Shown here piece by piece: positions 6,246 through 51,559 of a DNA stretch of 64,000 nucleotides (position 1 is the stretch's first letter; every line of letters starts with the position of its first letter). Source of the stretch: a virus. Location of the stretch: the IMG/VR virus record IMGVR_UViG_3300032240_001333, positions 1 through 64,000 of that record, one strand, 5' to 3'. The notes below the pieces were generated by a model, which saw only the letters and a list, made by a program, of their open reading frames with translations, did no database searches and was not told the DNA's origin. The position numbers and the translations under genes were made by a program.

Positions 6246-7180
6246 AAGCTGTTGTAAAAGAAATTGGTTTAAAAATTATTAGTGAATCTAATAATAATTT
6301 AGTTATATATTGTCCATTCCATAATAATACTCATAGCCCAAGTTTTTATATTAGCGAAGAAAATGGCGCATGGCTTTGTTTTAATCCGTCATGTGCAGAA
6401 ACTGGCAATATTATTCAGCTAGTTAAAAAGATTACTAATAAAAATGATTTTGAAGCCATTAGACTTGTAACCGCAAAAGAGTCACAGGCATTAGATAGTT
6501 TTGATGAAGCACTTAATCAAATGTTTGAGGAAAAGCCAGAATTTATAGAATTTGATCAAAGTAAATTAGATGATTTATCTATGGAATTAACGTTTAATAA
6601 AGATGCTAGAGACTACTTTGAATCTCGTGGTATAAATCAAGCATCTATGACTTATTTTAAATTAGGATATTCACAGTCTCAAGGAATGGTTATTGTCCCA
6701 GTACATAGTCCAGATGGCGTGCCAGTTGGACTAGTTGGTAGATCAATAACTGAAAAGAAGTTTAAAAACAGTACAAATTTACCAAAAAATAAAACATTGT
6801 TTAATGTGCATAGAGCTAAAAGAATTGGTGATCAGGTAATAATTGTTGAATCTAGTTTTGATGCAATTATAATACATCAAGCAGGATTCCCTAATGTTAT
6901 TGCAACATTGGGTGGTCACATCTCATCAGATAATATAAATTTATTAAATAGATATTTTAATAAGATTATTATCATGACAGATGCTGATCATGCAGGAAGA
7001 GAATTAGGGTTATCAATATCTAGTAAATTAAGAAACAAAGACATCTTGTGGGCTTCTTATGCTTATGGTAAAATATATCCACATGAAGCAAAAGATGCAG
7101 GAGATATGACTGAAGAAGAAATTAAGCTTTGTATTAACAATGCTGTTTCTGACATAGAATACAAATCCTGGACCTTGTGA
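6182..7180 (+). CDS. dnaG: DNA primase (CHC2 zinc finger plus TOPRIM)
   Basis: CPFH...CFNPSC, VESSFDA, DADHAG; start placed at ATG 6182 behind AGGCGGA (ORF track begins 6131). Confidence 0.9.
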   Translation: MGIRGNNTREVSSTQYAPNHIKAVVKEIGLKIISESNNNLVIYCPFHNNTHSPSFYISEENGAWLCFNPSCAETGNIIQLVKKITNKNDFEAIRLVTAKESQALDSFDEALNQMFEEKPEFIEFDQSKLDDLSMELTFNKDARDYFESRGINQASMTYFKLGYSQSQGMVIVPVHSPDGVPVGLVGRSITEKKFKNSTNLPKNKTLFNVHRAKRIGDQVIIVESSFDAIIIHQAGFPNVIATLGGHISSDNINLLNRYFNKIIIMTDADHAGRELGLSISSKLRNKDILWASYAYGKIYPHEAKDAGDMTEEEIKLCINNAVSDIEYKSWTL

Positions 7181-7235: not shown

Positions 7236-7901
7236 ATGGGTCTAGTAAAAGGACTAAAAGATTTAAATAAAGTAATGGATAAACCGCAAGCATCTAGCGG
7301 TGACGGGTCGAAAGCTCGTTGGGTTAAATTAGATGACACAGAAAGTGTTAAGATTAGATTTCTTCAGGAATTAGATCCTGATTCTCCCTACTACAATGAA
7401 AAAAATGGTTTAGGCTTTATTGCCGTTGAACACACAAATCCAAAAGATTATAAGCGTAAAGCTTTGTGTACAATTGATGACCAAGGAAAATGTTGGGGAT
7501 GTGAACAACATCGCAAAGATTACAAGGCAGGATGGAAAGGCCGTTCCCGTCTTTACATTAACGTTCTTGTAGATGATGGCAAAGAGGAGCCATATGTTGC
7601 CATCTTGTCTCAGGGTAGTAGCGGAAAGACTATTACTCCTACATTAATTGAATATGCTGGCGAAATGGGTAGCATTTCAAATTTAATGTGGCGCATTAAG
7701 CGTACAGGCACAAAGACAGACACCAGTTATACATCAATCCCACTTGCCAAAGATGAGGTACCATTTGATTCATCTGGATTGGAATTGTATGAATTGGAAA
7801 AGGTTGCAGTTCGTGACCTACCCTATACAGAGCAAGAAGCCTTCTTCAATGGTGAAGGCGTAGATGAGCCATCAAACGCAACAGGTAGCGTAGAGTGGTA
7901 A
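7236..7901 (+). CDS. Probable single-stranded DNA-binding protein
   Basis: Lies between primase and polymerase; Cys pair CWGC; acidic C-terminus ending in W; own promoter and terminator. Confidence 0.6.
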   Translation: MGLVKGLKDLNKVMDKPQASSGDGSKARWVKLDDTESVKIRFLQELDPDSPYYNEKNGLGFIAVEHTNPKDYKRKALCTIDDQGKCWGCEQHRKDYKAGWKGRSRLYINVLVDDGKEEPYVAILSQGSSGKTITPTLIEYAGEMGSISNLMWRIKRTGTKTDTSYTSIPLAKDEVPFDSSGLELYELEKVAVRDLPYTEQEAFFNGEGVDEPSNATGSVEW

Positions 7902-11100: not shown

Positions 11101-11444
11101 GACAAATGTATTTTATTCTTGTAGGAGATAATCGTATTGCTAGATATATTAAGGTAAACGATATTGATCCCAACGGCTCAGATCTATTTGTAGATTATTT
11201 ATATAGAAAAGAATATGATATGGAAGATGATGAAATGATGGTTATTAACTTTAATCCATATAAAACAAAAGCTGGCAAGACAATGGCACACATTGTTATG
11301 ACAGATAAAAATAAAGAGTTAAAACGGGCTATCGCATTCCCAGCCATGTATCCAAAAGTACTAGCCAAAATGCGTGAAGGTATGAAATGTAAACCAGTTC
11401 TGTCTAAATTAGATGACGGAACCTTAATGATAAAGGAAGCATAA
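8166..11444 (+). CDS. dnaE: DNA polymerase III alpha subunit (family C)
   Basis: PHP motif HLHVHSYYSLMDG, TDHG, GPGRGSAAGS, PDIDTD, YSFNRSHA; start MSFTH coupled to the upstream stop. Confidence 0.96.
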   Translation: MSFTHLHVHSYYSLMDGLNSPLELAQAAKDAGQTAIAITDHGTLASHRDMQLACKEIGIKPILGVEAYISPTDRFDRSSKTDKSIQAYNHIILLAKNMKGLENINILQELAWNEGFYHKPRIDREVLNDYNEGIIVLSGCLNGLISKAIDKGNMEEAELLLKGFKQTFGQDFYVEVQSHNPMEINSALLELADKLGIKAVATGDAHFAKGEDKILEEAMLILSTSPKSDKEADFEMSRNMNNMLDRFNYLYPDRRISFQDYNLFIQSRSEIELDFNNAGITRTDIYDNTIEITEKIGEYDFNRGLDLLPVPKTNADQKLADMAFEGLERLRLRENWLGNDIYDQRLMEELEIIKEKNFASYFLVVADMINWAKENNIMVGPGRGSAAGSLVCYALGITDVDPIEYDLLFFRFINPERNDFPDIDTDFEDRRRKEVKDYLKKKFKHVASISTYTYFKDKGVIRDAARVFMVPLQDVNRAMKSIDTFEDFMESPNTKEFRMKYPEVVWLAERLRGKIRSVGVHAAGVVVAKDDIRKFAPIESREDAQDKVSGRIPVVAYDMDTVADIGLIKLDALGLKTLSVISDTLKAIKKRHNKDIELSSLSLNDAEVYKTLSEGYTKGVFQAEATPYTNLLIKMGVDKFEDLAASNALVRPGAMNTVGASYINRKHGREDVEYVHEIMKPFTENTYGVIIYQEQVMQACVHLGGMSWSEADKVRKIIGKKKDAKEFDQFKDKFIDGASKHISKKKAESLWHDFEAHAGYSFNRSHAVAYSMLSYYTAWLKKYYPLEFMFSILKNENNKDARTEYLIEAKRLNLKVLLPHINESDVYFSLKQNAIQFGLAEIKFISDSIANKIIERRPYETYADFVQKASAKGSGINSRAVSALNAIGGAAFDDNIRSGKEKENYYEYLGIPTFNLESIPPRIKSQARPIQDFDDLGSFPMFGMVKSIKRGTGWARIELVDETGSIGLFHHEQTQIETGQMYFILVGDNRIARYIKVNDIDPNGSDLFVDYLYRKEYDMEDDEMMVINFNPYKTKAGKTMAHIVMTDKNKELKRAIAFPAMYPKVLAKMREGMKCKPVLSKLDDGTLMIKEA

Positions 11445-27827: not shown

Positions 27828-28058
27828 ATGTTACATTTAAACGAACTTGGTGTAAACGTATTTATAAATAAATATAAATCATTAGTAAATGAAGCTTATT
27901 GGAATAATTACGATTTAATTATTTGGAAAAAAAATCAAAATGGATTTTTTAATGTAAAAGGAATGTTTAAAAATTCTTGGGGCACAGCAGATAAAGTATC
28001 TGTAAATTATAATGGAATGTGGGTTTTACCAAAACAATATGTCAAATATTTTAAATGA
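27828..28058 (+). CDS. Hypothetical protein
   Basis: Preceded by TTGACA-N18-TATAAT and AAGGA. Confidence 0.6.
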   Translation: MLHLNELGVNVFINKYKSLVNEAYWNNYDLIIWKKNQNGFFNVKGMFKNSWGTADKVSVNYNGMWVLPKQYVKYFK

Positions 28059-28350
28059 TTTAGGTGTTGATAAAGACGATCTGGATTGGTGGCACCTTTC
28101 AGTATGTCGTGGCATGGATACTAATTTATTTTATGATAAATATGAAAATGATCCAAAGATTGCAAAAAATATAGATGAGGCATGTCTAGCGTGTCCAGTA
28201 ATATCTATGTGTTATAAAAATGGAGTTAGCAATAATGAATACGGAGTATGGGGCGGAGTTTATTTAAGTTCTGGCGCAATAGATAAAGCTAGAAATATTC
28301 ATAAAACACCAGACGTATGGAAAAAATTAAAGGCAAAGAATGTTCATTGA
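28039..28350 (+). CDS. whiB: WhiB-family Fe-S transcription factor
   Basis: C...CLAC PVISM C and GVWGG signature; likely start MSNIL. Confidence 0.88.
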   Translation: MSNILNDLGVDKDDLDWWHLSVCRGMDTNLFYDKYENDPKIAKNIDEACLACPVISMCYKNGVSNNEYGVWGGVYLSSGAIDKARNIHKTPDVWKKLKAKNVH

Positions 28351-41725: not shown

Positions 41726-41972
41726 GCTGTTTTGCCCTTTCGTTGATAGCGAATGCTAAATTATACGTCATAACATACAAATCTGTCAATGCGTCCATAC
41801 GTCCTTCAAAATAAAATTTATCTGCAATATTATCAGAATCACCTATTTCCGATAGTTTTGTTTCACATTCATACATCCAATTTTTTAATTCACCATGCAT
41901 GATGTTAGTACCTGTTTCTCCCAGGTCAATCAGCTTTTGAAGATGTGGGCTTAATTCATCAGACATTATCAT
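41718..41972 (-). CDS. Early-region hypothetical protein
   Basis: ORF track; operon packing. Confidence 0.6.
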   Translation of the reverse strand: MIMSDELSPHLQKLIDLGETGTNIMHGELKNWMYECETKLSEIGDSDNIADKFYFEGRMDALTDLYVMTYNLAFAINERAKQRG

Positions 41973-42394
41973 TTGCTACCTCCAATAAATGTTCTATGGC
42001 AAATATCTGTCCTTGTATATAATGCCAATCAATTGAATCATCTTTTAAAGATGTCTTTTCAATTAGTTCTTTATCTTGTTCAAGACTTATTAAATGAAGT
42101 TTCATATATTCGATTAAATTAGTCATGGATATCTTTCTGTCCAGTTTCTCTATTATGAATTGCATATACTCCGCAATCACAATTAAAGTATCCTGGTGTG
42201 TCGGTGCATTCCCATTTATGACTATGCATGATCGAAATACCCCTCAGCCCATAGTCCTTGCAAGAAACTGTTTGCCATTTCTAAATCGCTTCTAAGTTCT
42301 GTCTTATCCATTAAATTGGACGGGGTCCTAAGATAAAAAAGTTTTGCGTCATGTATAGCATTAATCATTCTATTTAAATCATTTTCAGTATAAC

Positions 42395-42604
42395 CTAGCA
42401 TAAGAAGTACTCATCCCCTTCTTTATATCCATAATATTCATTATAAGATTGTCTTACATTATCAGGAGCAAATTCCATAAATTTAAATTCAGCATATTCT
42501 TCGCCTTCATCTAAATTAGAATTATTCCAGTCTTCAAACAATTGCTCTTTTATATCATGCTGGATAGAATCTATTAGCATTTCATTCATATCATCTGTAA
42601 ACAT
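42395..42604 (-). CDS. Acidic early-region hypothetical protein
   Basis: Own TGTCAG-N10-TATAAT promoter and AACGAAAGG leader. Confidence 0.7.
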   Translation of the reverse strand: MFTDDMNEMLIDSIQHDIKEQLFEDWNNSNLDEGEEYAEFKFMEFAPDNVRQSYNEYYGYKEGDEYFLC

Positions 42605-42760
42605 TTTTCCCCTTTCGTTATGGCTTAATTATATATCAGACCACTGACATTTGTAAATAGAATATTGGTGTGTTTCACACCACATTGTCCAAAGATTGAG
42701 ATTTCCAGGAAATTTACTTGACATCCGTAAAACAGATATGATACCCTCACCAGCTGCGGG

Positions 42761-42894
42761 AAATAAGAAACCCCCCAGCCGAGACTACTGGGGGATTAAG
42801 AGAGTGGCTGCTAGGACCTCAACGAAAGGAAAAGCCTGCTTTACTTAGCAACTAGATAAGTTGCACCACTCATATGAATAGGCACCCTGGGCCT
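42761..42894 (-). ncRNA. Candidate trans-acting antisense sRNA 1 (anti-AACGAAAGGAAAA)
   Basis: TGCTATAAT promoter (42901-42909), several stems, UUUUCCUUUCGUUG in a predicted loop, terminator CCCCCAG/CUGGGGG plus U-rich tail. Confidence 0.75.
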
Positions 42895-42911
42895 AATCAA
42901 ATTATAGCATA

Positions 42912-43316
42912 TTAGACGAGCAGTCTCTCCAATGCATACTTCTCACAGAATGATGTGAGATCCATGGTAAAGATTGCTTCATTCTTCATACCTAAAACTT
43001 TATTCTCTAAGTTGCGATGATCATCTTGCTCATGCAATGAGAACGTTTGGTCCTTCCAATTAATAACAGCGATCTTGTGCTCATTGTCACCAATTGAATT
43101 TACCTGCAGACCCCAGCCTGTTTCCATGTTCCATTGGTCGCCGATCAAATGACTAATAGCAATACGTGTTGCATATGATTCGTCATTCCATCGAGGACGT
43201 GCTGCAATAACAGCATCCGCCAATTTACCTAACATGTTATATCCAGCCCAGTGTCCGTATAAGCAGATTGTATCTCCTGCTCCATCAACGAATACGTAGT
43301 TTGCTCTATCTCCCAT
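42912..43316 (-). CDS. Early-region phage protein
   Basis: MGDRAN...LYGHWAG; AGGCGGA RBS. Confidence 0.7.
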   Translation of the reverse strand: MGDRANYVFVDGAGDTICLYGHWAGYNMLGKLADAVIAARPRWNDESYATRIAISHLIGDQWNMETGWGLQVNSIGDNEHKIAVINWKDQTFSLHEQDDHRNLENKVLGMKNEAIFTMDLTSFCEKYALERLLV

Positions 43317-43507
43317 TATATTTCCGCCTTTTCTAGTTGAGGTGTTTCTTCCGTTTTGTTTAATTCTATCATTTCATAGGCCCATTTGTCTAGAGCCTCT
43401 GAATTACTATTTCGGTGATGTCCGCAAAATGCCAGCTCACCTGATGTGCTACGGGCTAACCATTTAGCCTGAGCTGAGCATGAATCACATTTGATCCATT
43501 CGCTCAT
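43316..43507 (-). CDS. Small zinc-finger protein
   Basis: CDSC...FCGHH. Confidence 0.65.
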   Translation of the reverse strand: MSEWIKCDSCSAQAKWLARSTSGELAFCGHHRNSNSEALDKWAYEMIELNKTEETPQLEKAEI

Positions 43508-43875
43508 ATCTTGTTTTCCTCTATCATATCTGATAGGCGGTCAAGGAGCCAAGAGTCGATATCCGCTAAGTCTATCTCTCTTAACTTCTCAATGATCTCC
43601 TCACGAGCAAATTTATACCCGTCATCAAAACCATCTTTATACTCAGACATTTTCTCCCCTAACATATGCTAATTCATTCTCAGCATAATCTTTTTCATTT
43701 AATACTGTAAGATTGTGAGTTTGAATTAACTTGCTCACCTTCTCAATATTACCTGTTCCGATCTCGAATGTCAAGGACTTACGGTCATGAGAATCAGGAT
43801 CAAGCCCCATGACCTCCGCATCCCATGAGGCTCTATGGAAAGCAACATTACTATTTGCTTTTAATTTATAAAACA

Positions 43876-44328
43876 TTAGTTCCAATCCACATCTGTGTCT
43901 TCAATTGACCAATCATTTACTTCAACATCGCTTCCATATGATGTTAAAGTAAGTTCATCTCCAAGTTTGTAATGAGCGTCAAAGTTATCAACCTCATCAA
44001 GTGGAACCTGAACAGTTACTTCAAAATTAATAGTTCCAGTTACTGTAACTGTCTTTGATAATTCAAATCCAAACAGTTCTGCTATTTGTTGAAGCGCTTC
44101 TTCCTTTGTATAATTAGGATTATATAATTCAACTAGAAGTTCTTCTAACTCATTAACCTTTGATTTAAGGCTATGATAGTTATCATTAGCACGACGACCT
44201 TGATCTAAGGCCCATTCTAAATCAACTACCTTATCGGTAATATATTCAGGTGCTTCAGGTGCTGCGTAGGTTCCTGCAATCTTCTTGTAAGTCACAAGTA
44301 GATTAGGATTGTATGTTTCTATTGACAT
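43876..44328 (-). CDS. Early-region hypothetical protein
   Basis: CAACGAAAGGAAA leader. Confidence 0.7.
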   Translation of the reverse strand: MSIETYNPNLLVTYKKIAGTYAAPEAPEYITDKVVDLEWALDQGRRANDNYHSLKSKVNELEELLVELYNPNYTKEEALQQIAELFGFELSKTVTVTGTINFEVTVQVPLDEVDNFDAHYKLGDELTLTSYGSDVEVNDWSIEDTDVDWN

Positions 44329-45086
44329 TAGTTTCCTTTCGTTGTAGTAGTGGTTAAGTATACATTATGGGTCTGACATTCCGCCATAGCATCTTCATCC
44401 TGCCAAGAGCCTTGATTACATTCTGAGCAGAATTCTCCGCATCCGTCTTCACAATAATCTATTGTGTTAAAAGATTGGCAGGCATAACATCTGTTTTCAT
44501 ATTCTAAGTTTTCATTAACTTCACCACGAACAATCTCGTATTCACCACCCCAACCAGTCTCTTCTTCAAATTCAAGGGTTAATAGAGAGTTTGGAACAAG
44601 ATTGCTAAGTTTAGTTAATATAGTAACGGCAGGTGACCAAGCAGTATTATATTTATAGATAACCCAGTTGTCTTCACCCTCTGATGTATATTCAAGTAAT
44701 TCAGTATCAGGATATTCATCTTTGTCTGCTACGGCAACATCCCATTTTGTTCCCCAGTTAGTTGTATTCCAGTTATACCAATCTTTCTGAGTTTTAGCAT
44801 GCTCCATTTCTTTATCAAACCAATCAGGTTGATTTGTAGAAATTCCAAGTCGTGCAGGTTGTTGAACATATTCTTGCATTGTAATACCATCTTGTAATGG
44901 AGAATGTATATTCCAAAATGCAAAGACAGGATTAGAGTAAGTAGATTCAGTTACTTCCATTTTATTAGTTTCCATGTTCCAACTATCGTGCCATACCATA
45001 AATGGCTCGTTAAGTTTATCTTTGATAAAATCTATCTCAGACTTTGGTCCTTGGATTGTTAATGTGTTATACACCCAGTTAGGCAT
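44328..45086 (-). CDS. YubB/DUF1281-like ferredoxin-fold protein
   Basis: MPNW, WYNWN..NWGTKWD, YNTAWSP; start corrected to MPNW behind the leader motif. Confidence 0.7.
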   Translation of the reverse strand: MPNWVYNTLTIQGPKSEIDFIKDKLNEPFMVWHDSWNMETNKMEVTESTYSNPVFAFWNIHSPLQDGITMQEYVQQPARLGISTNQPDWFDKEMEHAKTQKDWYNWNTTNWGTKWDVAVADKDEYPDTELLEYTSEGEDNWVIYKYNTAWSPAVTILTKLSNLVPNSLLTLEFEEETGWGGEYEIVRGEVNENLEYENRCYACQSFNTIDYCEDGCGEFCSECNQGSWQDEDAMAECQTHNVYLTTTTTKGN

Positions 45087-45210
45087 ATTATTCCTTTCGT
45101 TGATTAGCGCAATTGTATCAGAGTCGACTGACATTATCAAGGATTTCCAGGAATTTTATTGATGTTCTCATAAAAGCGAAAAAAGGCCCTTAGCTATTGG
45201 GGGCAGCTTG

Positions 45211-45284
45211 CGATCCCAACGGGACTTGAACCCGTAGCCTTTACCGTGACAGGGTAACGATCTAACCAATTGATCTATGGGACC
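45211..45284 (-). tRNA. tRNA-Asp(GTC)
   Basis: Acceptor GGTCCCA/TGGGATC, anticodon arm TTACC-CTGTCAC-GGTAA, T arm ACGGG-TTCAAGT-CCCGT. Confidence 0.92.
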
Positions 45285-45315
45285 TAGATGTGGGGCCCTT
45301 TCGGGCCCCATTTAT

Positions 45316-46323
45316 TTATACTAGTTGCAGATTATTTTGTACAACTTTTAACAAGCGATTTTTTTCTGCGTTAATTACAGGATTGAAACCACTTGCAGAT
45401 GCTAAAAGAGTTTCAGCATTTCCACGGCGATGCCAATCTAAACGCTCAGTTAAAGCGTTAAATGCTCCCCATGCATTACCAGCGATCATGTGATTAAATT
45501 CGCCAGTGTAGATATCATTAATGAGATCAACTTTCGTTTCCCATTTTTTAATTGCGCCCTTAGTATCTTTTGTAGGCTTAGGGTACGCAGCCAAAATAAT
45601 ATCGTTAAATTGTTGAGCGGTGATTTCTTTTTGAATCATCTGCTTAGCCATGATATCGAATTTATCCATGTATGAATTCGCAAGACCTAAAGCCTCACGA
45701 GCCACACGCACACGACCTTCAGCAGATTGTGTATGACGGATTTTGAAAGATTGCTTAACGCCATCTTTCTTTTTGATATTGCCCATCGCAAGATTTAGCG
45801 TGTTAGCGCATACAACACGAACGGGTGTTATAGATGCTTGAATAGCAATTGAGCCATCATGTGATGTATTAATAAGCAGATAAGTTTTAACAACATCTGC
45901 CACGCCACTAGGATCAAGAACGGTTTCACGCTCTAATGCTAATGAGCCGAATACAACACGACCGCCACGAATTGAGCCAGCAGTCTCCCAACGTCCACCG
46001 CCATCAAGAATATTATCGCCGAATGCGAATAATTCTTCATTTTGCAATGGTACATAACGCTCACCGACAATTCCTAAAACATCGGTTTGTGTTTTGTCCG
46101 TAGGATTAGTACGCACAACATATTGATAGTTTTTATCGCTTGTTAATGTAGATGGAATTTCTAATTCCTCTAAGCGAACATTCCAACCATTAAGGTTAGC
46201 GGTTTCTAGCATTTCGCTAGTTGTTTTTTCTTCTGTGAACACGGTACCTAAACCATGCCACGCAGGTTCACGAAATGATGCAAAAGAAGTTTTGCCATTT
46301 TGTGATTCTAGTTCATGAGCCAT
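45316..46323 (-). CDS. DUF932/DUF945-family phage/plasmid protein
   Basis: REPAWHGLG, ETAGSIRGGR, NTSHDGS, TPVRVVCANTL, RHT. Confidence 0.85.
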   Translation of the reverse strand: MAHELESQNGKTSFASFREPAWHGLGTVFTEEKTTSEMLETANLNGWNVRLEELEIPSTLTSDKNYQYVVRTNPTDKTQTDVLGIVGERYVPLQNEELFAFGDNILDGGGRWETAGSIRGGRVVFGSLALERETVLDPSGVADVVKTYLLINTSHDGSIAIQASITPVRVVCANTLNLAMGNIKKKDGVKQSFKIRHTQSAEGRVRVAREALGLANSYMDKFDIMAKQMIQKEITAQQFNDIILAAYPKPTKDTKGAIKKWETKVDLINDIYTGEFNHMIAGNAWGAFNALTERLDWHRRGNAETLLASASGFNPVINAEKNRLLKVVQNNLQLV

Positions 46324-46460
46324 TTATTTTCCTTTCGTTTAATGTAGCGTTATTCTAGCATACATGACTGACATTTGGCAATATCCTATCCGACACGCCA
46401 GGGATTTTAAAAGCTTGACTTAAAGCAGAAAATGCCCCCACAGTATCTGGGGGCTTTTAA

Positions 46461-46679
46461 TTAAGAAATGACTAACGATTTAAAATCGGTTGGAAAAAAC
46501 ATTGCCAGAATCTTTTTCTTTTCAACATTGTCATATACATATGCTTTGACATTGCCCTGGAACTTATTTAGATTTTTTCTAACAACTTTATTTAGCGCTT
46601 CACGATTTAATATATCATTAAAATGTAAAGTTAAATCATGAGCTTTGTTAGCATCATAGATTTCTACACGATACCGCAT
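46461..46679 (-). CDS. Early-region hypothetical protein
   Basis: AAAAGGAAA RBS; TAGACA-N18-TAAAAT promoter. Confidence 0.6.
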   Translation of the reverse strand: MRYRVEIYDANKAHDLTLHFNDILNREALNKVVRKNLNKFQGNVKAYVYDNVEKKKILAMFFPTDFKSLVIS

Positions 46680-46751
46680 TTGTTTCCTTTTGTAGTAGGG
46701 AGAACTATTTTAACATAGGGGGCTAGATTTTGTCTAGCCCCCATTTGTTTA

Positions 46752-47174
46752 TTATAGATATTGAGCGATAGCGTTGTAAGTAGAAGTTGAAACTACTTCC
46801 TCATCTGTCATTTTCAGAATACGGATAGCGTTTTCAATTTCATCTTTTGTAGCCTTGTAAGTATGAACATGGAAGGTTTCAAAATCACGCTCAGGTTGCT
46901 TAGGAAAATCCTTCTCGTCAATTTTTAAGTCAAAATCAACATTGAGTTGGTTATTCCATGAACGATAATTTGTGCGGACATTTTCCGCTTTTGAGATATT
47001 ATCAAGAGCAAACTTAACAATATCTTTATTCCACTTAGCCAAAGTCTTTTGATACTTTGCCTCGTTCTCGTCTTGTTTCTTATAGTTAGTTTCAATTTCT
47101 GCTAACTTAGTTTCTAAAGCCTTGATAACTTTAGGTGTAGCGATTTTAACGCTAATTGCTTTTTGTCTTGACAT
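46752..47174 (-). CDS. Early-region hypothetical protein
   Basis: Complete promoter plus leader cassette. Confidence 0.75.
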   Translation of the reverse strand: MSRQKAISVKIATPKVIKALETKLAEIETNYKKQDENEAKYQKTLAKWNKDIVKFALDNISKAENVRTNYRSWNNQLNVDFDLKIDEKDFPKQPERDFETFHVHTYKATKDEIENAIRILKMTDEEVVSTSTYNAIAQYL

Positions 47175-47241
47175 GTATTTCCTTTCGTTAGGTTGGGTTT
47201 ATTATAGCGGACACCACCGACAAGCGGTGTCCGCATATTAC

Positions 47242-47385
47242 TTAGTTTAGAACTACTGAAGTCCAGCGTTCTTTGCCATTTACATCTAGCAAGATACGAG
47301 CCACTCCGCTTGGGTGATTATCAACGGCTTTGATAATTCCAGTAATACCACTTGTAGTGGTTGTGTATAGTTGTCCGATTTCCAT
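47242..47385 (-). CDS. Early-region small protein (MEIGQLY...)
   Basis: Start corrected to the ATG following the leader motif. Confidence 0.65.
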   Translation of the reverse strand: MEIGQLYTTTTSGITGIIKAVDNHPSGVARILLDVNGKERWTSVVLN

Positions 47386-47436
47386 TTTTGTTTCCTTTCG
47401 TTTATGGGTTGTTATTATAGCACCTGCCACCGACAA

Positions 47437-47706
47437 TTAGTAATCGGTTTCAGGTAGCCACGCTTCTAGGTGGTGAGCCTCGATAATTGCTAAGGCAGGA
47501 GCCTTATCTCTGCCCCTATATGACACGCCTTGAGGCATATCTATCAGGCGATCATAGTCCTCATCATAGTACGCATCTATGGCATCAATACATGGTTGTA
47601 CCATTGATAGCGGAACGGGTGGATAGTGATTACCTTGTAAGTGATAACCAATAGCCATTTCTAAGTCTAAGTTTTCTGCTAAGTCTATTGCTGTATTTAA
47701 TCCCAT
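47437..47706 (-). CDS. Early-region phage protein
   Basis: HLQGNHYPPVP motif; AGGAG RBS. Confidence 0.7.
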   Translation of the reverse strand: MGLNTAIDLAENLDLEMAIGYHLQGNHYPPVPLSMVQPCIDAIDAYYDEDYDRLIDMPQGVSYRGRDKAPALAIIEAHHLEAWLPETDY

Positions 47707-47982
47707 TTATTCATTCTCCTCTAATATAGTTTCGGATAAGTTTTCTATTTCGTTAATACTATCCGTCATCTCTTTCATCTCGGTTTCGGATAGTAATACT
47801 TTAGTAGTTAGGTCTGCTGTTTTACTAGCAAGACTAGCAGAATAAAGATAAATTAACTTTGCGAAAGTTTTATCATCTATTTCATTTCTGCGTTCCATTA
47901 AGTCCCCTGCTAAGGCTGTAATATCATCATTAAATACTGCTTCCTTAGTTGCTTCTGATATTGCTATGGCTGTTGCTAACAT
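47707..47982 (-). CDS. Early-region hypothetical protein
   Basis: Promoter plus leader cassette. Confidence 0.7.
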   Translation of the reverse strand: MLATAIAISEATKEAVFNDDITALAGDLMERRNEIDDKTFAKLIYLYSASLASKTADLTTKVLLSETEMKEMTDSINEIENLSETILEENE

Positions 47983-48034
47983 ATTTTCCTTTCGTTGGTG
48001 ATGGGCTGATTATACACCAGCCCACCGACATTTA

Positions 48035-48295
48035 CTAAGCCAGTACTATAAGAGCCTGCGTAGCAAACTCATTAGCAATATCTAACTTTGCTTGGATTTC
48101 ATCTCTAGTCATATCGGCAGGGTTACCGACAAACTCAGTAATTGCGCCTTGATTGTAAGTTGCAAACCTACCAGCAGGCAAGTTTTCTACTTTTGGATAA
48201 AACTCACCTTTTGGATCTAATAAAGAGTTAAACTTAACTCCATTAACTTCGAATGGATAAACCACCCAATTAGTTGTGTCTAGCATTGTTTTCAT
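48035..48295 (-). CDS. Early-region hypothetical protein
   Basis: Promoter plus leader cassette. Confidence 0.7.
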   Translation of the reverse strand: MKTMLDTTNWVVYPFEVNGVKFNSLLDPKGEFYPKVENLPAGRFATYNQGAITEFVGNPADMTRDEIQAKLDIANEFATQALIVLA

Positions 48296-48565
48296 TTTAT
48301 TTCCTTTCGTTTAAGTAGTGGAATTGTAGCAGATCTAACTGACATTTTGTTGCGACACGCCGTCAGCTCGTAAAAATTTTCAGGGTGTTTTATATCACAT
48401 TCTTAACGACACGCCCGACCCCGCAGTATTTGCGGGCAAAGCCCCCTTTTGTCAAGGGGGACACGCTGGTTATTTAATAACACTCTCCACATAATGGATA
48501 GTAATATTCGCCATCATCAGTAATAAACTGAGTGGTATCTTGATTGCAAGATGAACATTTATTCA

Positions 48566-48775
48566 TTATAAATCCCCCATTTCTGCGTCAGCCATGCGTG
48601 TATTCATATGATCTGCATCAATATCACGCCAGCCAAAGTAAGCCATTTCTGACATATCATAACATTCAGGGCAGACATAATCGTCGCCAAAGATTTCATA
48701 TTCCTCAATAGTTTCGAAAGTCTGAGTAGCACCACAGATTTCGTACATTAAGCAAGCAACTGTTAGATTTTCCAT
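48566..48775 (-). CDS. Early-region acidic zinc-ribbon protein
   Basis: Cys pairs; promoter plus leader cassette. Confidence 0.65.
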   Translation of the reverse strand: MENLTVACLMYEICGATQTFETIEEYEIFGDDYVCPECYDMSEMAYFGWRDIDADHMNTRMADAEMGDL

Positions 48776-49025
48776 TTTAGTTCACCTTTCGTTAAGTAAT
48801 GGAATACTAACACATCACACTGACATTTCCAAATCGACACGCCGAAATTTTCAGGGCATTTTTATCATGTGTCTTAAATCACAAAACGCCCCCACAGCTT
48901 TTGCGGGCTTTTTCTAATCTGTCAAGTCGACACGCCGTTTATGTTTTAATTTTCTTGTGTATTTTTTTTTATTGCGAACAGGTTGGGCCGCATTGCTGCG
49001 GCGTAATTCCTGAATGCGTTTTACT

Positions 49026-49217
49026 TTATTTAGAAGAATATTTTGGCACATGATAACCGCTTGCTTCATGAAATTTAACAACATCAAAACGCTCATTATC
49101 TTTTGCAAACATTTCTGCAAAATCGTGAACAGTTTTAGAAAAAACAGCGGGATGAATTTTATCGCTGATATATTTTAAAATTTCAGCGGTTGCGATATAG
49201 TCTTTACGGGTCATCAT
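49026..49217 (-). CDS. Early-region small protein
   Basis: MTRKDY...A....DN.RFD..KF pattern. Confidence 0.65.
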   Translation of the reverse strand: MMTRKDYIATAEILKYISDKIHPAVFSKTVHDFAEMFAKDNERFDVVKFHEASGYHVPKYSSK

Positions 49218-49413
49218 TTTGCGGACACCAATCCAATCAAGTTAAAATTTTTAGTATACATTTTACCATTAGGCATAGTTAAATTATATCTTGCGTTTTC
49301 TACGGCAAAGCCATGATCTTTACATCTAGCAAAAGCCTCAAACGCTTGAAGAGCATCAGAAAATTCATGGGTAAATTCTAATTTCCCATCATAGTAAGTA
49401 AATAATTTATACA

Positions 49414-49545
49414 TTAGATCACCCACTCATCTAAAACACAATCACAACTTTCAACATCATAATTTTTTTCATCGCCCCAAAATACAAATCCTGCGCCACC
49501 GCATTCTTCACATTCAATTGCGATTATTTCTTTTATATTTCCCAT
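49414..49545 (-). CDS. Early-region 43-aa zinc-ribbon protein (not in ORF track)
   Basis: CEECGG.G...CDC; promoter plus leader cassette. Confidence 0.6.
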   Translation of the reverse strand: MGNIKEIIAIECEECGGAGFVFWGDEKNYDVESCDCVLDEWVI

Positions 49546-49598
49546 TTAGTTTTCCTTTCGTAGTTTGTTAATAGAATTATAGCGGATACCGCTGACAC

Positions 49599-49814
49599 CT
49601 AGTAGGTGTCAGGGTAAACATCTTCGGGTTTTCCAATCCCGATTACACGATATTTATTACGGATCATGCCCGTATCAATTTCGATTAAATAAGCATCAAT
49701 ATATCTGCCAAAAAAAGCAGAATGTTTTTCAGCAGAAACAATTTTTCCGCTGATAGTATCGGATGAATAAGTCCTACCGACTAGCAAGTCGGTGTGAGAG
49801 TAGATATTAGCCAT
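49599..49814 (-). CDS. Early-region hypothetical protein
   Basis: Promoter plus leader cassette. Confidence 0.65.
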   Translation of the reverse strand: MANIYSHTDLLVGRTYSSDTISGKIVSAEKHSAFFGRYIDAYLIEIDTGMIRNKYRVIGIGKPEDVYPDTY

Positions 49815-49865
49815 AGTTAGTTTTCCTTTCGTTTATGGTGTAATTTTAACATAACCCACTGACAA

Positions 49866-50015
49866 TCAGTGGGTTGGCGTTTCCGCCATGATTAGTTTTA
49901 ATAAACCAATTCGTTGCGATTTGGTTAAATTTAATTTCGCAACAGTTTCGGATTTTATTCCGCCATTATTATATTCGAACAAAAGTTCGTTATAGATTTC
50001 GCTAAATTCTTTCAT
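49866..50015 (-). CDS. Early-region 49-aa protein (not in ORF track)
   Basis: MKEFSEIYNELLFEY...; promoter plus leader cassette. Confidence 0.6.
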   Translation of the reverse strand: MKEFSEIYNELLFEYNNGGIKSETVAKLNLTKSQRIGLLKLIMAETPTH

Positions 50016-50122
50016 TTAGTTTTCCTTTCGTTTAATAGTTTTATTCTAACACCTACCACTGACATTTTGCCTATTACTGACCAGTATTTGAGACAGTATT
50101 CGTGTGATCATAATCACACGAG

Positions 50123-50197
50123 TTATCCACGACACGCCCGAAGTTTTCCACAGATTTTCAGGGGTTTTCCACATCTGTGCATAAACCCTGTGGATAA
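50123..50197. promoter_or_regulatory. Cluster of five DnaA boxes
   Basis: TTATCCACG 50123, TTTTCCACA 50144 and 50165, TGTGCATAA 50176, TGTGGATAA 50189. Confidence 0.75.
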
Positions 50198-50969
50198 CGC
50201 CCACAAAAAGCTGCGGGCCAATGTCGCCATTGTCAAGGCGACACGCCGTCTATTTCTTGTGAGTTTCCTCACATACGCATTTGGTATATGCGCCAGCGTT
50301 TAACCTGCCACATTTAGGGCAGGTATAGAAACCAGCAGGATTAGTCATTTAACCCACCGCTCTTTACATCGTAGTAGATAGCGTAGACTAGGGCAGATAC
50401 TACACCTAGCAACGCTAATTGGATGGCGGTGGTGATTAGTCTATTTAGTGTCATTACTTACGACCTCTCCATATTTTAATTCCAGCAATTACTACAACAG
50501 ATACGATAATTAGTTTCCAATCTAGTGCGACATAGAACCAATCGCTATCTACGCAGAAACCATATGAGTTTAATTCAATAGTCATTTATTACTCCGTCCA
50601 GTCTAAGGTTAATTCTTGCTCTGCTAATTCATCAAGGCTAATTATATCGGTATCAAAATCGCTAACGATATCTTCATCGCCCTCTTGCTTGGCGATAGCC
50701 TCTCTCTCGTCCCAATGGCGGTATGCGTCTGCGATATCCGCTTGGATAGTGTCCCATTTAGTCATCATATTAGAAACCCCAGCAATCTGAGCAGATAACT
50801 ACATCGCTCTCATCGTAGAATATAGAGGACATCTCTACATCGCACACCTTACAATTTAAGGTGATTAGTGTGTCGTTCATTTTCTTACCTTCTTTCGTTT
50901 TTGTTATGGTGAAACCTTATCATACCCCACCGACAAAGCGCAAGCCTTGCCGATGTGATGTTGCTCACA

Positions 50970-51194
50970 TTAGTAGGCACCATAGGTGCCATCCTTTAGT
51001 GATTGGATAGTAGTCAATACATGGTCAATAGCCATCATGACTATCTCTTTATCAGAGCGGTCTTGATAAGCCCAATGATCCTTATAGTAGACATATGCTT
51101 GCTCATATGTCCAGCAATAAGTATCGTGATAATACTTAAGCGTAGGAGATAGCGTTTCATACGCCTCATTTATTTCTTTTATCATAGTTATCAT
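50970..51194 (-). CDS. First gene of the leftward early block, hypothetical
   Basis: TCAACGAAAGGA leader; long structured 5'UTR. Confidence 0.65.
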   Translation of the reverse strand: MITMIKEINEAYETLSPTLKYYHDTYCWTYEQAYVYYKDHWAYQDRSDKEIVMMAIDHVLTTIQSLKDGTYGAY

Positions 51195-51221
51195 ATTTAT
51201 ATCCTTTCGTTGATATATATT

Positions 51222-51273
51222 GAGCGGTTATTTGCTAGGCTCACCTTTCGGATTATTTGCTAGGCTCACGCTC
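51222..51273 (-). repeat. Structured leader with a 17-nt direct repeat
   Basis: GTGAGCCTAGCAAATAA twice, around CCGAAAGG, closed by GAGCG/CGCTC. Confidence 0.75.
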
Positions 51274-51559
51274 TAATTCTTTATTTAATTTATACTATAA
51301 TCATATAAGAGGGGACTGACATTTTGCAAGTCACAAATCGGACATGTCGGACATTTTGAAAACTTTTTTTGGAAAATCGTGTGATACTCCTCACATATGG
51401 TCGCTCTAAAGGGATAAATCGGACATTTCAAAATGGTGTATCATACAAAATAAAAATATATTAACATTTTGTGAAATCTGAAATACTAGTCGACTAGGAT
51501 TATATGTGTATATATGAGATATATTTTAGTTAACTAAGATATTAATGTATAATTTAAAT

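Follow-up and report, generated by a model that had tools for sequence, protein, structure and literature searches.

A conserved non-coding RNA of an uncultured freshwater actinophage with an invariant loop complementary to a leader shared by early genes

We identified a genuine, conserved, and structured non-coding RNA gene on the minus strand of a virus genome, with a transcript predicted from the sequence. The gene represents a previously undescribed RNA family, and its invariant loop is the exact complement of a leader, ribosome-binding site (RBS) included, that is found in front of 14 genes of one genomic block. We consider it probable (about 0.6) that the product would be a trans-acting antisense RNA masking the Shine-Dalgarno (SD) sites of promoter-proximal early cistrons. 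Because the loop is invariant and matches both the early leader and its RBS, the RNA probably controls the whole early gene set at once. Both the RNA family itself and the proposed logic of one RNA for many leaders are new.

Genomic setting and architecture of the RNA unit

The window, i.e., the whole stretch of 64,000 nucleotides analyzed here, comes from an IMG/VR virus record of 81 kb with ~33% GC. The DnaE-like polymerase of the virus showed 57% identity to that of the Streptomyces phages BillNye and Samisti12, and the 335-aa DUF932 protein of the early block showed 53% identity to a protein encoded in the ~11-kb terminal repeat that phages of the Jay2Jay type (Stanwilliamsviridae) carry. 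Additionally, an ORF at 28012-28350 on the plus strand (112 aa) contains a four-Cys pattern and a GVWGG turn, a signature that we take to be WhiB-like and that supports an actinobacterial host despite the 33% GC. The actinobacterial assignment made in the first-pass annotation is thus right, and the similarities point to an actinophage from freshwater that carries an early, host-takeover-like block.

The RNA unit spans 42909-42761 on the minus strand, directly 3' of the stop codon of a 134-aa ORF, and comprises, in this order, the extended -10 element TGCTATAAT, a 5' hairpin, a multibranched fold, and an intrinsic terminator. The candidate RNA is ~125-134 nt long and non-coding, and its transcription would start near 42894. 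The features of the unit are as follows.

42912..43316, minus strand: conserved 134-aa gene directly upstream of the RNA (phrog_31860)
42901..42909, minus strand: extended -10 promoter TGCTATAAT, recognized by sequence, without a -35 element and without a PafBC-type box
42879..42895, minus strand: 5' terminal hairpin AGGC...GCCU in the minimum-free-energy fold, present in most but not all relatives
42802..42871, minus strand: three-way-junction core, from RNAalifold and pair counts
42871-42865 with 42808-42802, minus strand: P1 of the core
42864-42859 with 42853-42848, minus strand: P2 of the core
42847-42840, minus strand: invariant junction UAAGUAAA of the core
42839-42835 with 42815-42810, minus strand: P3 of the core
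42816..42834, minus strand: P3 loop CUUUUCCUUUCGUUGAGGU, holding the anti-leader (42820-42833) and the invariant core CUUUCGUU
42761..42797, minus strand: intrinsic terminator, an 11-bp GC-rich stem (42797-42769) followed by the U-rich UUUCUUAUUU, from terminator scan and fold

The minimum-free-energy fold (-46.3 kcal/mol, z = -2.4) contained all three stems that had been proposed from the sequence, AGGC/GCCU, GAGUGG/CCACUC, and GCAACU/AGUUGC. The earlier delimitation of a non-coding unit by an extended -10 (42909-42901) and a terminator also held, and the terminator scan found 11 pairs plus the U-rich tail. On the plus strand, a T-run following the terminator stem was looked for and was absent. 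The sole ORF in the unit, of 10 codons and starting with the AUG in cauAUGAGU, was rejected as a coding sequence, being without an SD and absent from relatives. With its own promoter and intrinsic terminator, the unit has the layout of the class of trans-encoded base-pairing sRNAs; a conserved, accessible seed complementary to the RBS of target mRNAs, likewise a mark of this class, was found by sequence and folding prediction. A further conserved block, GCCCGCA...GAGGGTAnCATAT...TTTACGGAnGTCAAnTATATTTCCCTGAAAT, is located just 3' of the RNA terminator (42640-42760, minus strand) and occupies the same position in loci L002-L066.

The existence of a conserved minus-strand non-coding RNA, as the first-pass annotation had it, was borne out by covariation with compensatory stem changes across relatives. 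The architecture was derived from an alignment of 43 unique sequences, which were sampled via the neighboring 134-aa gene and not selected on the loop; it forms a three-way junction of P1, P2, and P3, in which the junction sequences GGUG, UAA.UA, and GCAGCC are invariant. In this alignment, 10 of 18 pairs showed changes on both sides. In the alignment of the copies from 100 loci (see below), 95.2% of cells were paired versus 28-49% when the partners were slid, and the covariation score was 0.456 versus at most 0.077 in the slid controls, with changes on both sides in 9 of 18 pairs. The RNA strand is minus, because the many G-U pairs fit this strand only and the T-run is one-sided. A pseudoknot between the junction UAAGUAA and the UUACUUA of type B loops was rejected, as the G/A variation in the junction was unmatched by the loop. 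A pattern scan detected the RNA in at least 119 IMG/VR contigs, once per locus. The covariance model found one copy in each of 100 loci (50-111 bits) and exactly one in the window (109 bits, E = 2e-22).

The RNA family is abundant in lake viromes. No Rfam family was matched by cmscan, either in the window at the gathering threshold or in 42400-43100 at E <= 10, and a weak match to NsiR1 was discarded since it covered the terminator only. The same searches gave no match to the C4 covariance model (P1/P7 c4, P4 CI), nor to that of the actinobacterial 6C RNA, which consists of two C-rich-loop hairpins as opposed to the three-way junction found here. A search of INPHARED with the 1.1-kb region as a query returned no match in near and distant modes, and we found no description of such an RNA family in the literature. 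In a genome collection, the pattern scan gave 24 matches, three of them true; these three come from short contigs (2.9-3.5 kb) that had been assigned to MAGs of unrelated phyla and thus provide no host information.

The 134-aa gene has 66 relatives in IMG/VR, which come from lake metagenomes (Mendota and Erie type) and are encoded on contigs of up to 115 kb, and in nearly all of them the leader complement is situated 59-137 nt past the end of the gene. Invariant His, Asp, Glu, and Asn residues are numerous in the protein (YGHWAG, DNEHKI, and FSLH). It matched no Pfam family, and structural searches with its AF2 model (pLDDT 86) likewise gave nothing convincing (Foldseek E >= 0.15, VIA Z <= 3.6). 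A TGnTAnnnT element was conserved at a fixed distance upstream of the RNA in 89 of 120 unique relatives (74%), and a plain -10 was present in 11. The other 20 (~17%) had no promoter, and there the RNA begins ~10 nt past the stop codon and would be a 3'UTR product of the 134-aa gene. This distribution, with a dedicated extended -10 in 89 relatives and no promoter in 20, indicates that the RNA probably arises in two ways, by transcription from its own promoter and as part of a 3'UTR.

The shared leader and its pairing with the loop

The motif ACGAAAGG occurred 15 times in the window versus 0.57 times expected (26-fold), and 0 of 100 shuffles reached 15. Its distribution is as follows.

41736..51210, minus strand: early block with 14 leaders carrying ACGAAAGG, from motif count and promoter inspection
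41743, 42618, 44342, 45100, 46338, 47188, 47401, 47995, 48310, 48792, 49561, 49832, 50031, and 51210, minus strand: 5' ends of the ACGAAAGG copies

The minus strand carries 14 copies, between 41743 and 51210, and the plus strand only one, at 42822-42829 inside the candidate RNA, which is in agreement with the earlier remark that the RNA copy is the sole inverted one. The leader is also specific to the early block, as had been claimed: all 14 copies are within 41.7-51.2 kb, and the 17 kb of the record that lie beyond the window, with AGGAG-type sites at their genes, contained no ACGAAAGG. The 12-mer AACGAAAGGAAA is present exactly at seven leaders and in inverted form in the RNA. A tRNA-Asp gene (45210-45284, minus strand) is located inside the early block, between the 253-aa gene and the DUF932 gene.

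Each leader copy is 5-10 nt upstream of an ATG or GTG and 9-16 nt downstream of a -10 element, placing the motif 2-9 nt from the inferred transcript 5' ends. Most leaders are within a repeated module composed of aaTGTC(A/G)G-N10-TAnnnT, 9-16 nt, AACGAAAGGAAA, 5-10 nt, and ATG. About 13 early promoters of the form TGTC(A/G)G-N10-TAnnnT were found on the minus strand (window positions 42628-51321), and this promoter type is kept in relatives devoid of the RNA (hereafter, RNA-less relatives). The pattern matches the published PafBC (sigma-adaptation) motif of mycobacteria, tGTCgg(N10)tA(N3)T (PMC8635444). The copies at 41736 and 44332 had been described as promoter-less and operon-internal, a description that does not hold: TTGACA-N18-TATAAT precedes 41743, and TGTCAG-N10-TATACT precedes 44342. 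In view of these promoter-like sequences, the motif follows the 5' ends of transcripts no less than it follows translation starts.

We then evaluated the pairing between loop and leaders. All 14 leaders, each in front of an early minus-strand start as first noted, formed 9-14 contiguous Watson-Crick base pairs with the loop (-15 to -22 kcal/mol), and the same leaders paired with the 16S tail motif at -8.5 to -12 kcal/mol, about half the value of the loop duplex. The core of the P3 loop, CUUUCGUU, was invariant in the 43 unique sequences; the stems diverge and the 134-aa protein falls to 41% identity, and CUUUCGUU is nonetheless unchanged. The leader complement, originally described as displayed by a weak stem, sits in the conserved P3 loop and is predicted to be accessible: opening the 8-mer core would cost 0.66 kcal/mol in the window RNA, and the center of the core had a mean predicted unpaired probability of 0.75-0.87 over 105 variants. 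The loop types A, B, C, and F differ in their flanks, which are partly self-paired; in type A loops, the anti-SD CC is partly sequestered (CCUU/GAGG), and opening the 13-mer costs 4.8 kcal/mol. The apical UUUCGUU is always exposed and is the complement of AACGAAA, that is, of the non-SD AAC together with the beginning of the SD. This exact match of an always-unpaired segment supports the relevance that had been attributed to the AAC flank beyond the SD.

A joint change of loop and leader across relatives, which had been put forward as a check, was not observed; both cores are invariant, and compensatory change between them is therefore not scorable. In the ACUUUCG loop types, where an A precedes CUUUCG, the facing leader base is a G, i.e., a mismatch, in 64-66% of cases. 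Loops paired with their own leaders over 10.50 bp versus 10.16 bp after swapping, and the own combination was better in 22 of 31 loop types, which points only weakly to co-adaptation of the loop and leader flanks.

Co-occurrence of the RNA and the leader among relatives

In a count anchored on the promoter pattern alone, AACGAAAG followed the shared promoter pattern at 61% of 1080 promoters in RNA-bearing loci versus 10% of 306 promoters in RNA-less loci. Relatives that lack the RNA and share the promoter type thus seldom have the leader, and the expectation that the two go together was supported. In ~73 relatives with at most 87% DUF932 identity, the RNA was absent within 10 kb on either side. 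Two RNA-less relatives are 99-100% complete genomes with the same PafBC-type promoters, and the RNA was absent throughout; they contain 1-2 copies of ACGAAAGG per genome, whereas complete genomes with the RNA have 8-14 in addition to the inverted one. The RNA-less relatives combine the same promoter type with mixed SDs. The leader of the DUF932 gene itself was AACGAAAGG in RNA-bearing phages (three of three unique leaders) and of the AAAAAGGAGAAA type in 43 of 44 cases in RNA-less phages. The RNA-bearing phages may be a single clade, and hence the co-occurrence of RNA and leader may represent one evolutionary event.

One relative presents the loop on a different scaffold. In locus L061 (10396-10500), a plain 9-bp GC-rich hairpin, followed by a separate terminator, replaces the junction and still shows UUUCCUUUCGUU. 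This phage has 10 leaders of the same type, and the covariance model does not match its hairpin RNA. The presence of one loop on two scaffolds argues that the loop is the functional part. RNA-less relatives encode a 115-aa homologue of the 134-aa protein, with 42-48% identity in the N-terminal half, and have just a terminator hairpin at the position of the RNA, and the L061 hairpin may be an evolutionary intermediate derived from the terminator hairpin of such relatives (L297 and L298).

In the RNA-less loci L132 (4360-4425), L297, and L298, a CU-rich tail (CCUUUCUUUU or CCUUUCUG) closes the terminator that follows the gene for the 115-aa homologue. This tail resembles the complement of their AAAGAAAGG-type leaders but may equally be an ordinary U-tract. 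A candidate for another anti-leader RNA in RNA-less relatives, CCTTTCTTT, was dismissed: this 9-mer was not enriched in the two complete RNA-less genomes, and its matches were mostly leaders of genes on the opposite strand.

Proposed mode of action and alternative explanations

In the mechanism that we propose, the extended -10 of the unit would drive transcription of the RNA, to which read-through from the upstream operon of the 134-aa gene would add. The apical P3 loop UUUCGUU (within CUUUUCCUUUCGUUG) would pair in trans with the 5' leaders AACGAAAGGAAA of ~14 early genes, and the pairing would span the SD GAAAGG(A) and the flanking AAC, with first contact via the apical UUUCGUU and subsequent extension into the SD. 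Because a duplex of 9-14 bp would outcompete the ~7-bp pairing with the 16S tail, ribosome loading would be blocked jointly on the early set. As a structured, terminator-bearing molecule, the RNA should outlive the mRNAs and accumulate, and the stable RNA could then exert feedback on, or shut off, the early (host-takeover-like) genes. One point against this mechanism is stoichiometry, as one RNA would have to titrate ~14 strongly promoted mRNAs.

The same pairing might have the opposite outcome, with early mRNAs being protected from RNase J/E or from a host RNA-targeting defence, or might set a titration threshold. The target is ~2-9 nt from the inferred mRNA 5' ends, as such protection would have it, and the RNA promoter is a plain extended -10, unlike the PafBC-type early promoters, so that the RNA need not follow these promoters in time. 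However, the duplex takes in the entire SD and stops 5-10 nt short of the start codon, and in characterized RBS-masking sRNAs this placement blocks 30S binding, making a protective or threshold role unlikely. Pairing could also serve mainly to exclude related phages, the RNA of the first phage silencing the early leaders of later arrivals. Many lake phages that occur together share an identical leader and loop, and the known c4 RNA acts in this way in P1/P7 immunity (PMC12197685). The RNA would, however, hit the early mRNAs of its own phage equally, and exclusion is therefore not separable from self shut-off; as the main role, we regard it as rather improbable.

Neither the invariant GUU nor the second scaffold is well explained by readings that dispense with pairing to the early mRNAs. 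The unit might act in cis within the 134-aa operon, as a 3'UTR element, a terminator, or a stability element, perhaps affecting only the operon's own first leader (44342), with the trans targets being incidental. Such a reading draws on the constant position of the RNA after the same 134-aa gene, on the 20 of 120 relatives in which it begins ~10 nt past the stop codon without a promoter, and on the plain terminator hairpin at that position in RNA-less relatives. A terminator, though, needs neither a three-way junction nor an invariant 8-nt loop, 74% of relatives have a dedicated extended -10, and the odds of a chance 8-mer complementarity to the shared leader of the block are ~1e-4; a purely cis-acting element is accordingly quite doubtful. 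Finally, the loop could mimic the 3' tail of 16S rRNA (UCCUUUC) and bind a protein or factor recognizing the anti-SD instead of mRNAs, given that UCCUUUC is common to type A loops, type B loops, and the actinobacterial 16S tail motif. What is invariant, however, is CUUUCGUU, in which the GUU has no 16S counterpart and matches the AAC of the leader, and many variants have A or U at the position where a C would lengthen the resemblance. We consider 16S mimicry very unlikely.

The antisense mechanism, in which the RNA would mask the early SD sites, has partial precedents. The c4 RNA of phages P1 and P7 is trans-acting, mediates immunity, and is made from the same transcription unit as its target; like the present candidate, it is a phage-encoded structured RNA with loops that pair around the RBS of a phage mRNA, the pairing being predicted in our case (PMC12197685). 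In contrast, c4 uses two loops and controls one operon (icd-ant) in a temperate phage, whereas the RNA described here has one invariant loop facing ~14 separate early transcripts in a phage related to lytic Streptomyces phages. Gram-positive sRNAs with C-rich or CU-rich loops, such as the 6C RNA of Actinobacteria, RsaE and RNAIII of S. aureus, and RoxS of B. subtilis, also use a pyrimidine-rich hairpin-loop seed that pairs with SD regions, in hosts without Hfq. The present seed differs from theirs by reaching beyond the SD, with GUU opposite AAC, and is thereby specific for the leader of the phage itself and not for generic G-rich sites.

To our knowledge, shut-off of early host-takeover genes is known in only a few model lytic phages, where it is achieved by proteins. 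In phage T4, RegA is a translational repressor protein, and RegB is an endoribonuclease cutting GGAG; there, as proposed here, one phage product would act post-transcriptionally on a short RBS motif of many early mRNAs to shut them off, the proposed effector here being an RNA instead of a protein. At roughly even odds, phages would more generally mark a temporal gene class with a shared short 5' leader that is read by a single structured RNA, constituting an RNA counterpart of RegA/RegB with joint control over the host-takeover genes. If the antisense reading is true, one conserved RNA reading a leader common to early transcripts would constitute a simple mechanism that is new and, in Actinobacteria, a multi-target sRNA independent of Hfq. 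It would also supply an orthogonal leader/RNA pair, ready for use in the synthetic control of gene sets.

The early block resembles the terminal-repeat host-takeover modules of SPO1 and of the Streptomyces BE cluster in its size of ~10 kb, its many tiny genes with their own strong promoters, and its uniform strong RBSs, and it shares with the Jay2Jay terminal repeat a DUF932 homologue. We know of no anti-leader RNA in the SPO1 and BE-cluster modules, and the covariance model found no homologous RNA in the Jay2Jay terminal repeat (L152), giving there a 13.5-bit match without the loop. The repeat does contain early-type promoters (TGTAGACT and TGTAGAGT) followed by caTCGAAAGGGAG...CTCCC 5' stem-loops (e.g., 6620-6672, 7490-7542, and 11320-11373), so that CGAAAGG at transcript 5' ends also occurs in distant cultured relatives without the RNA.
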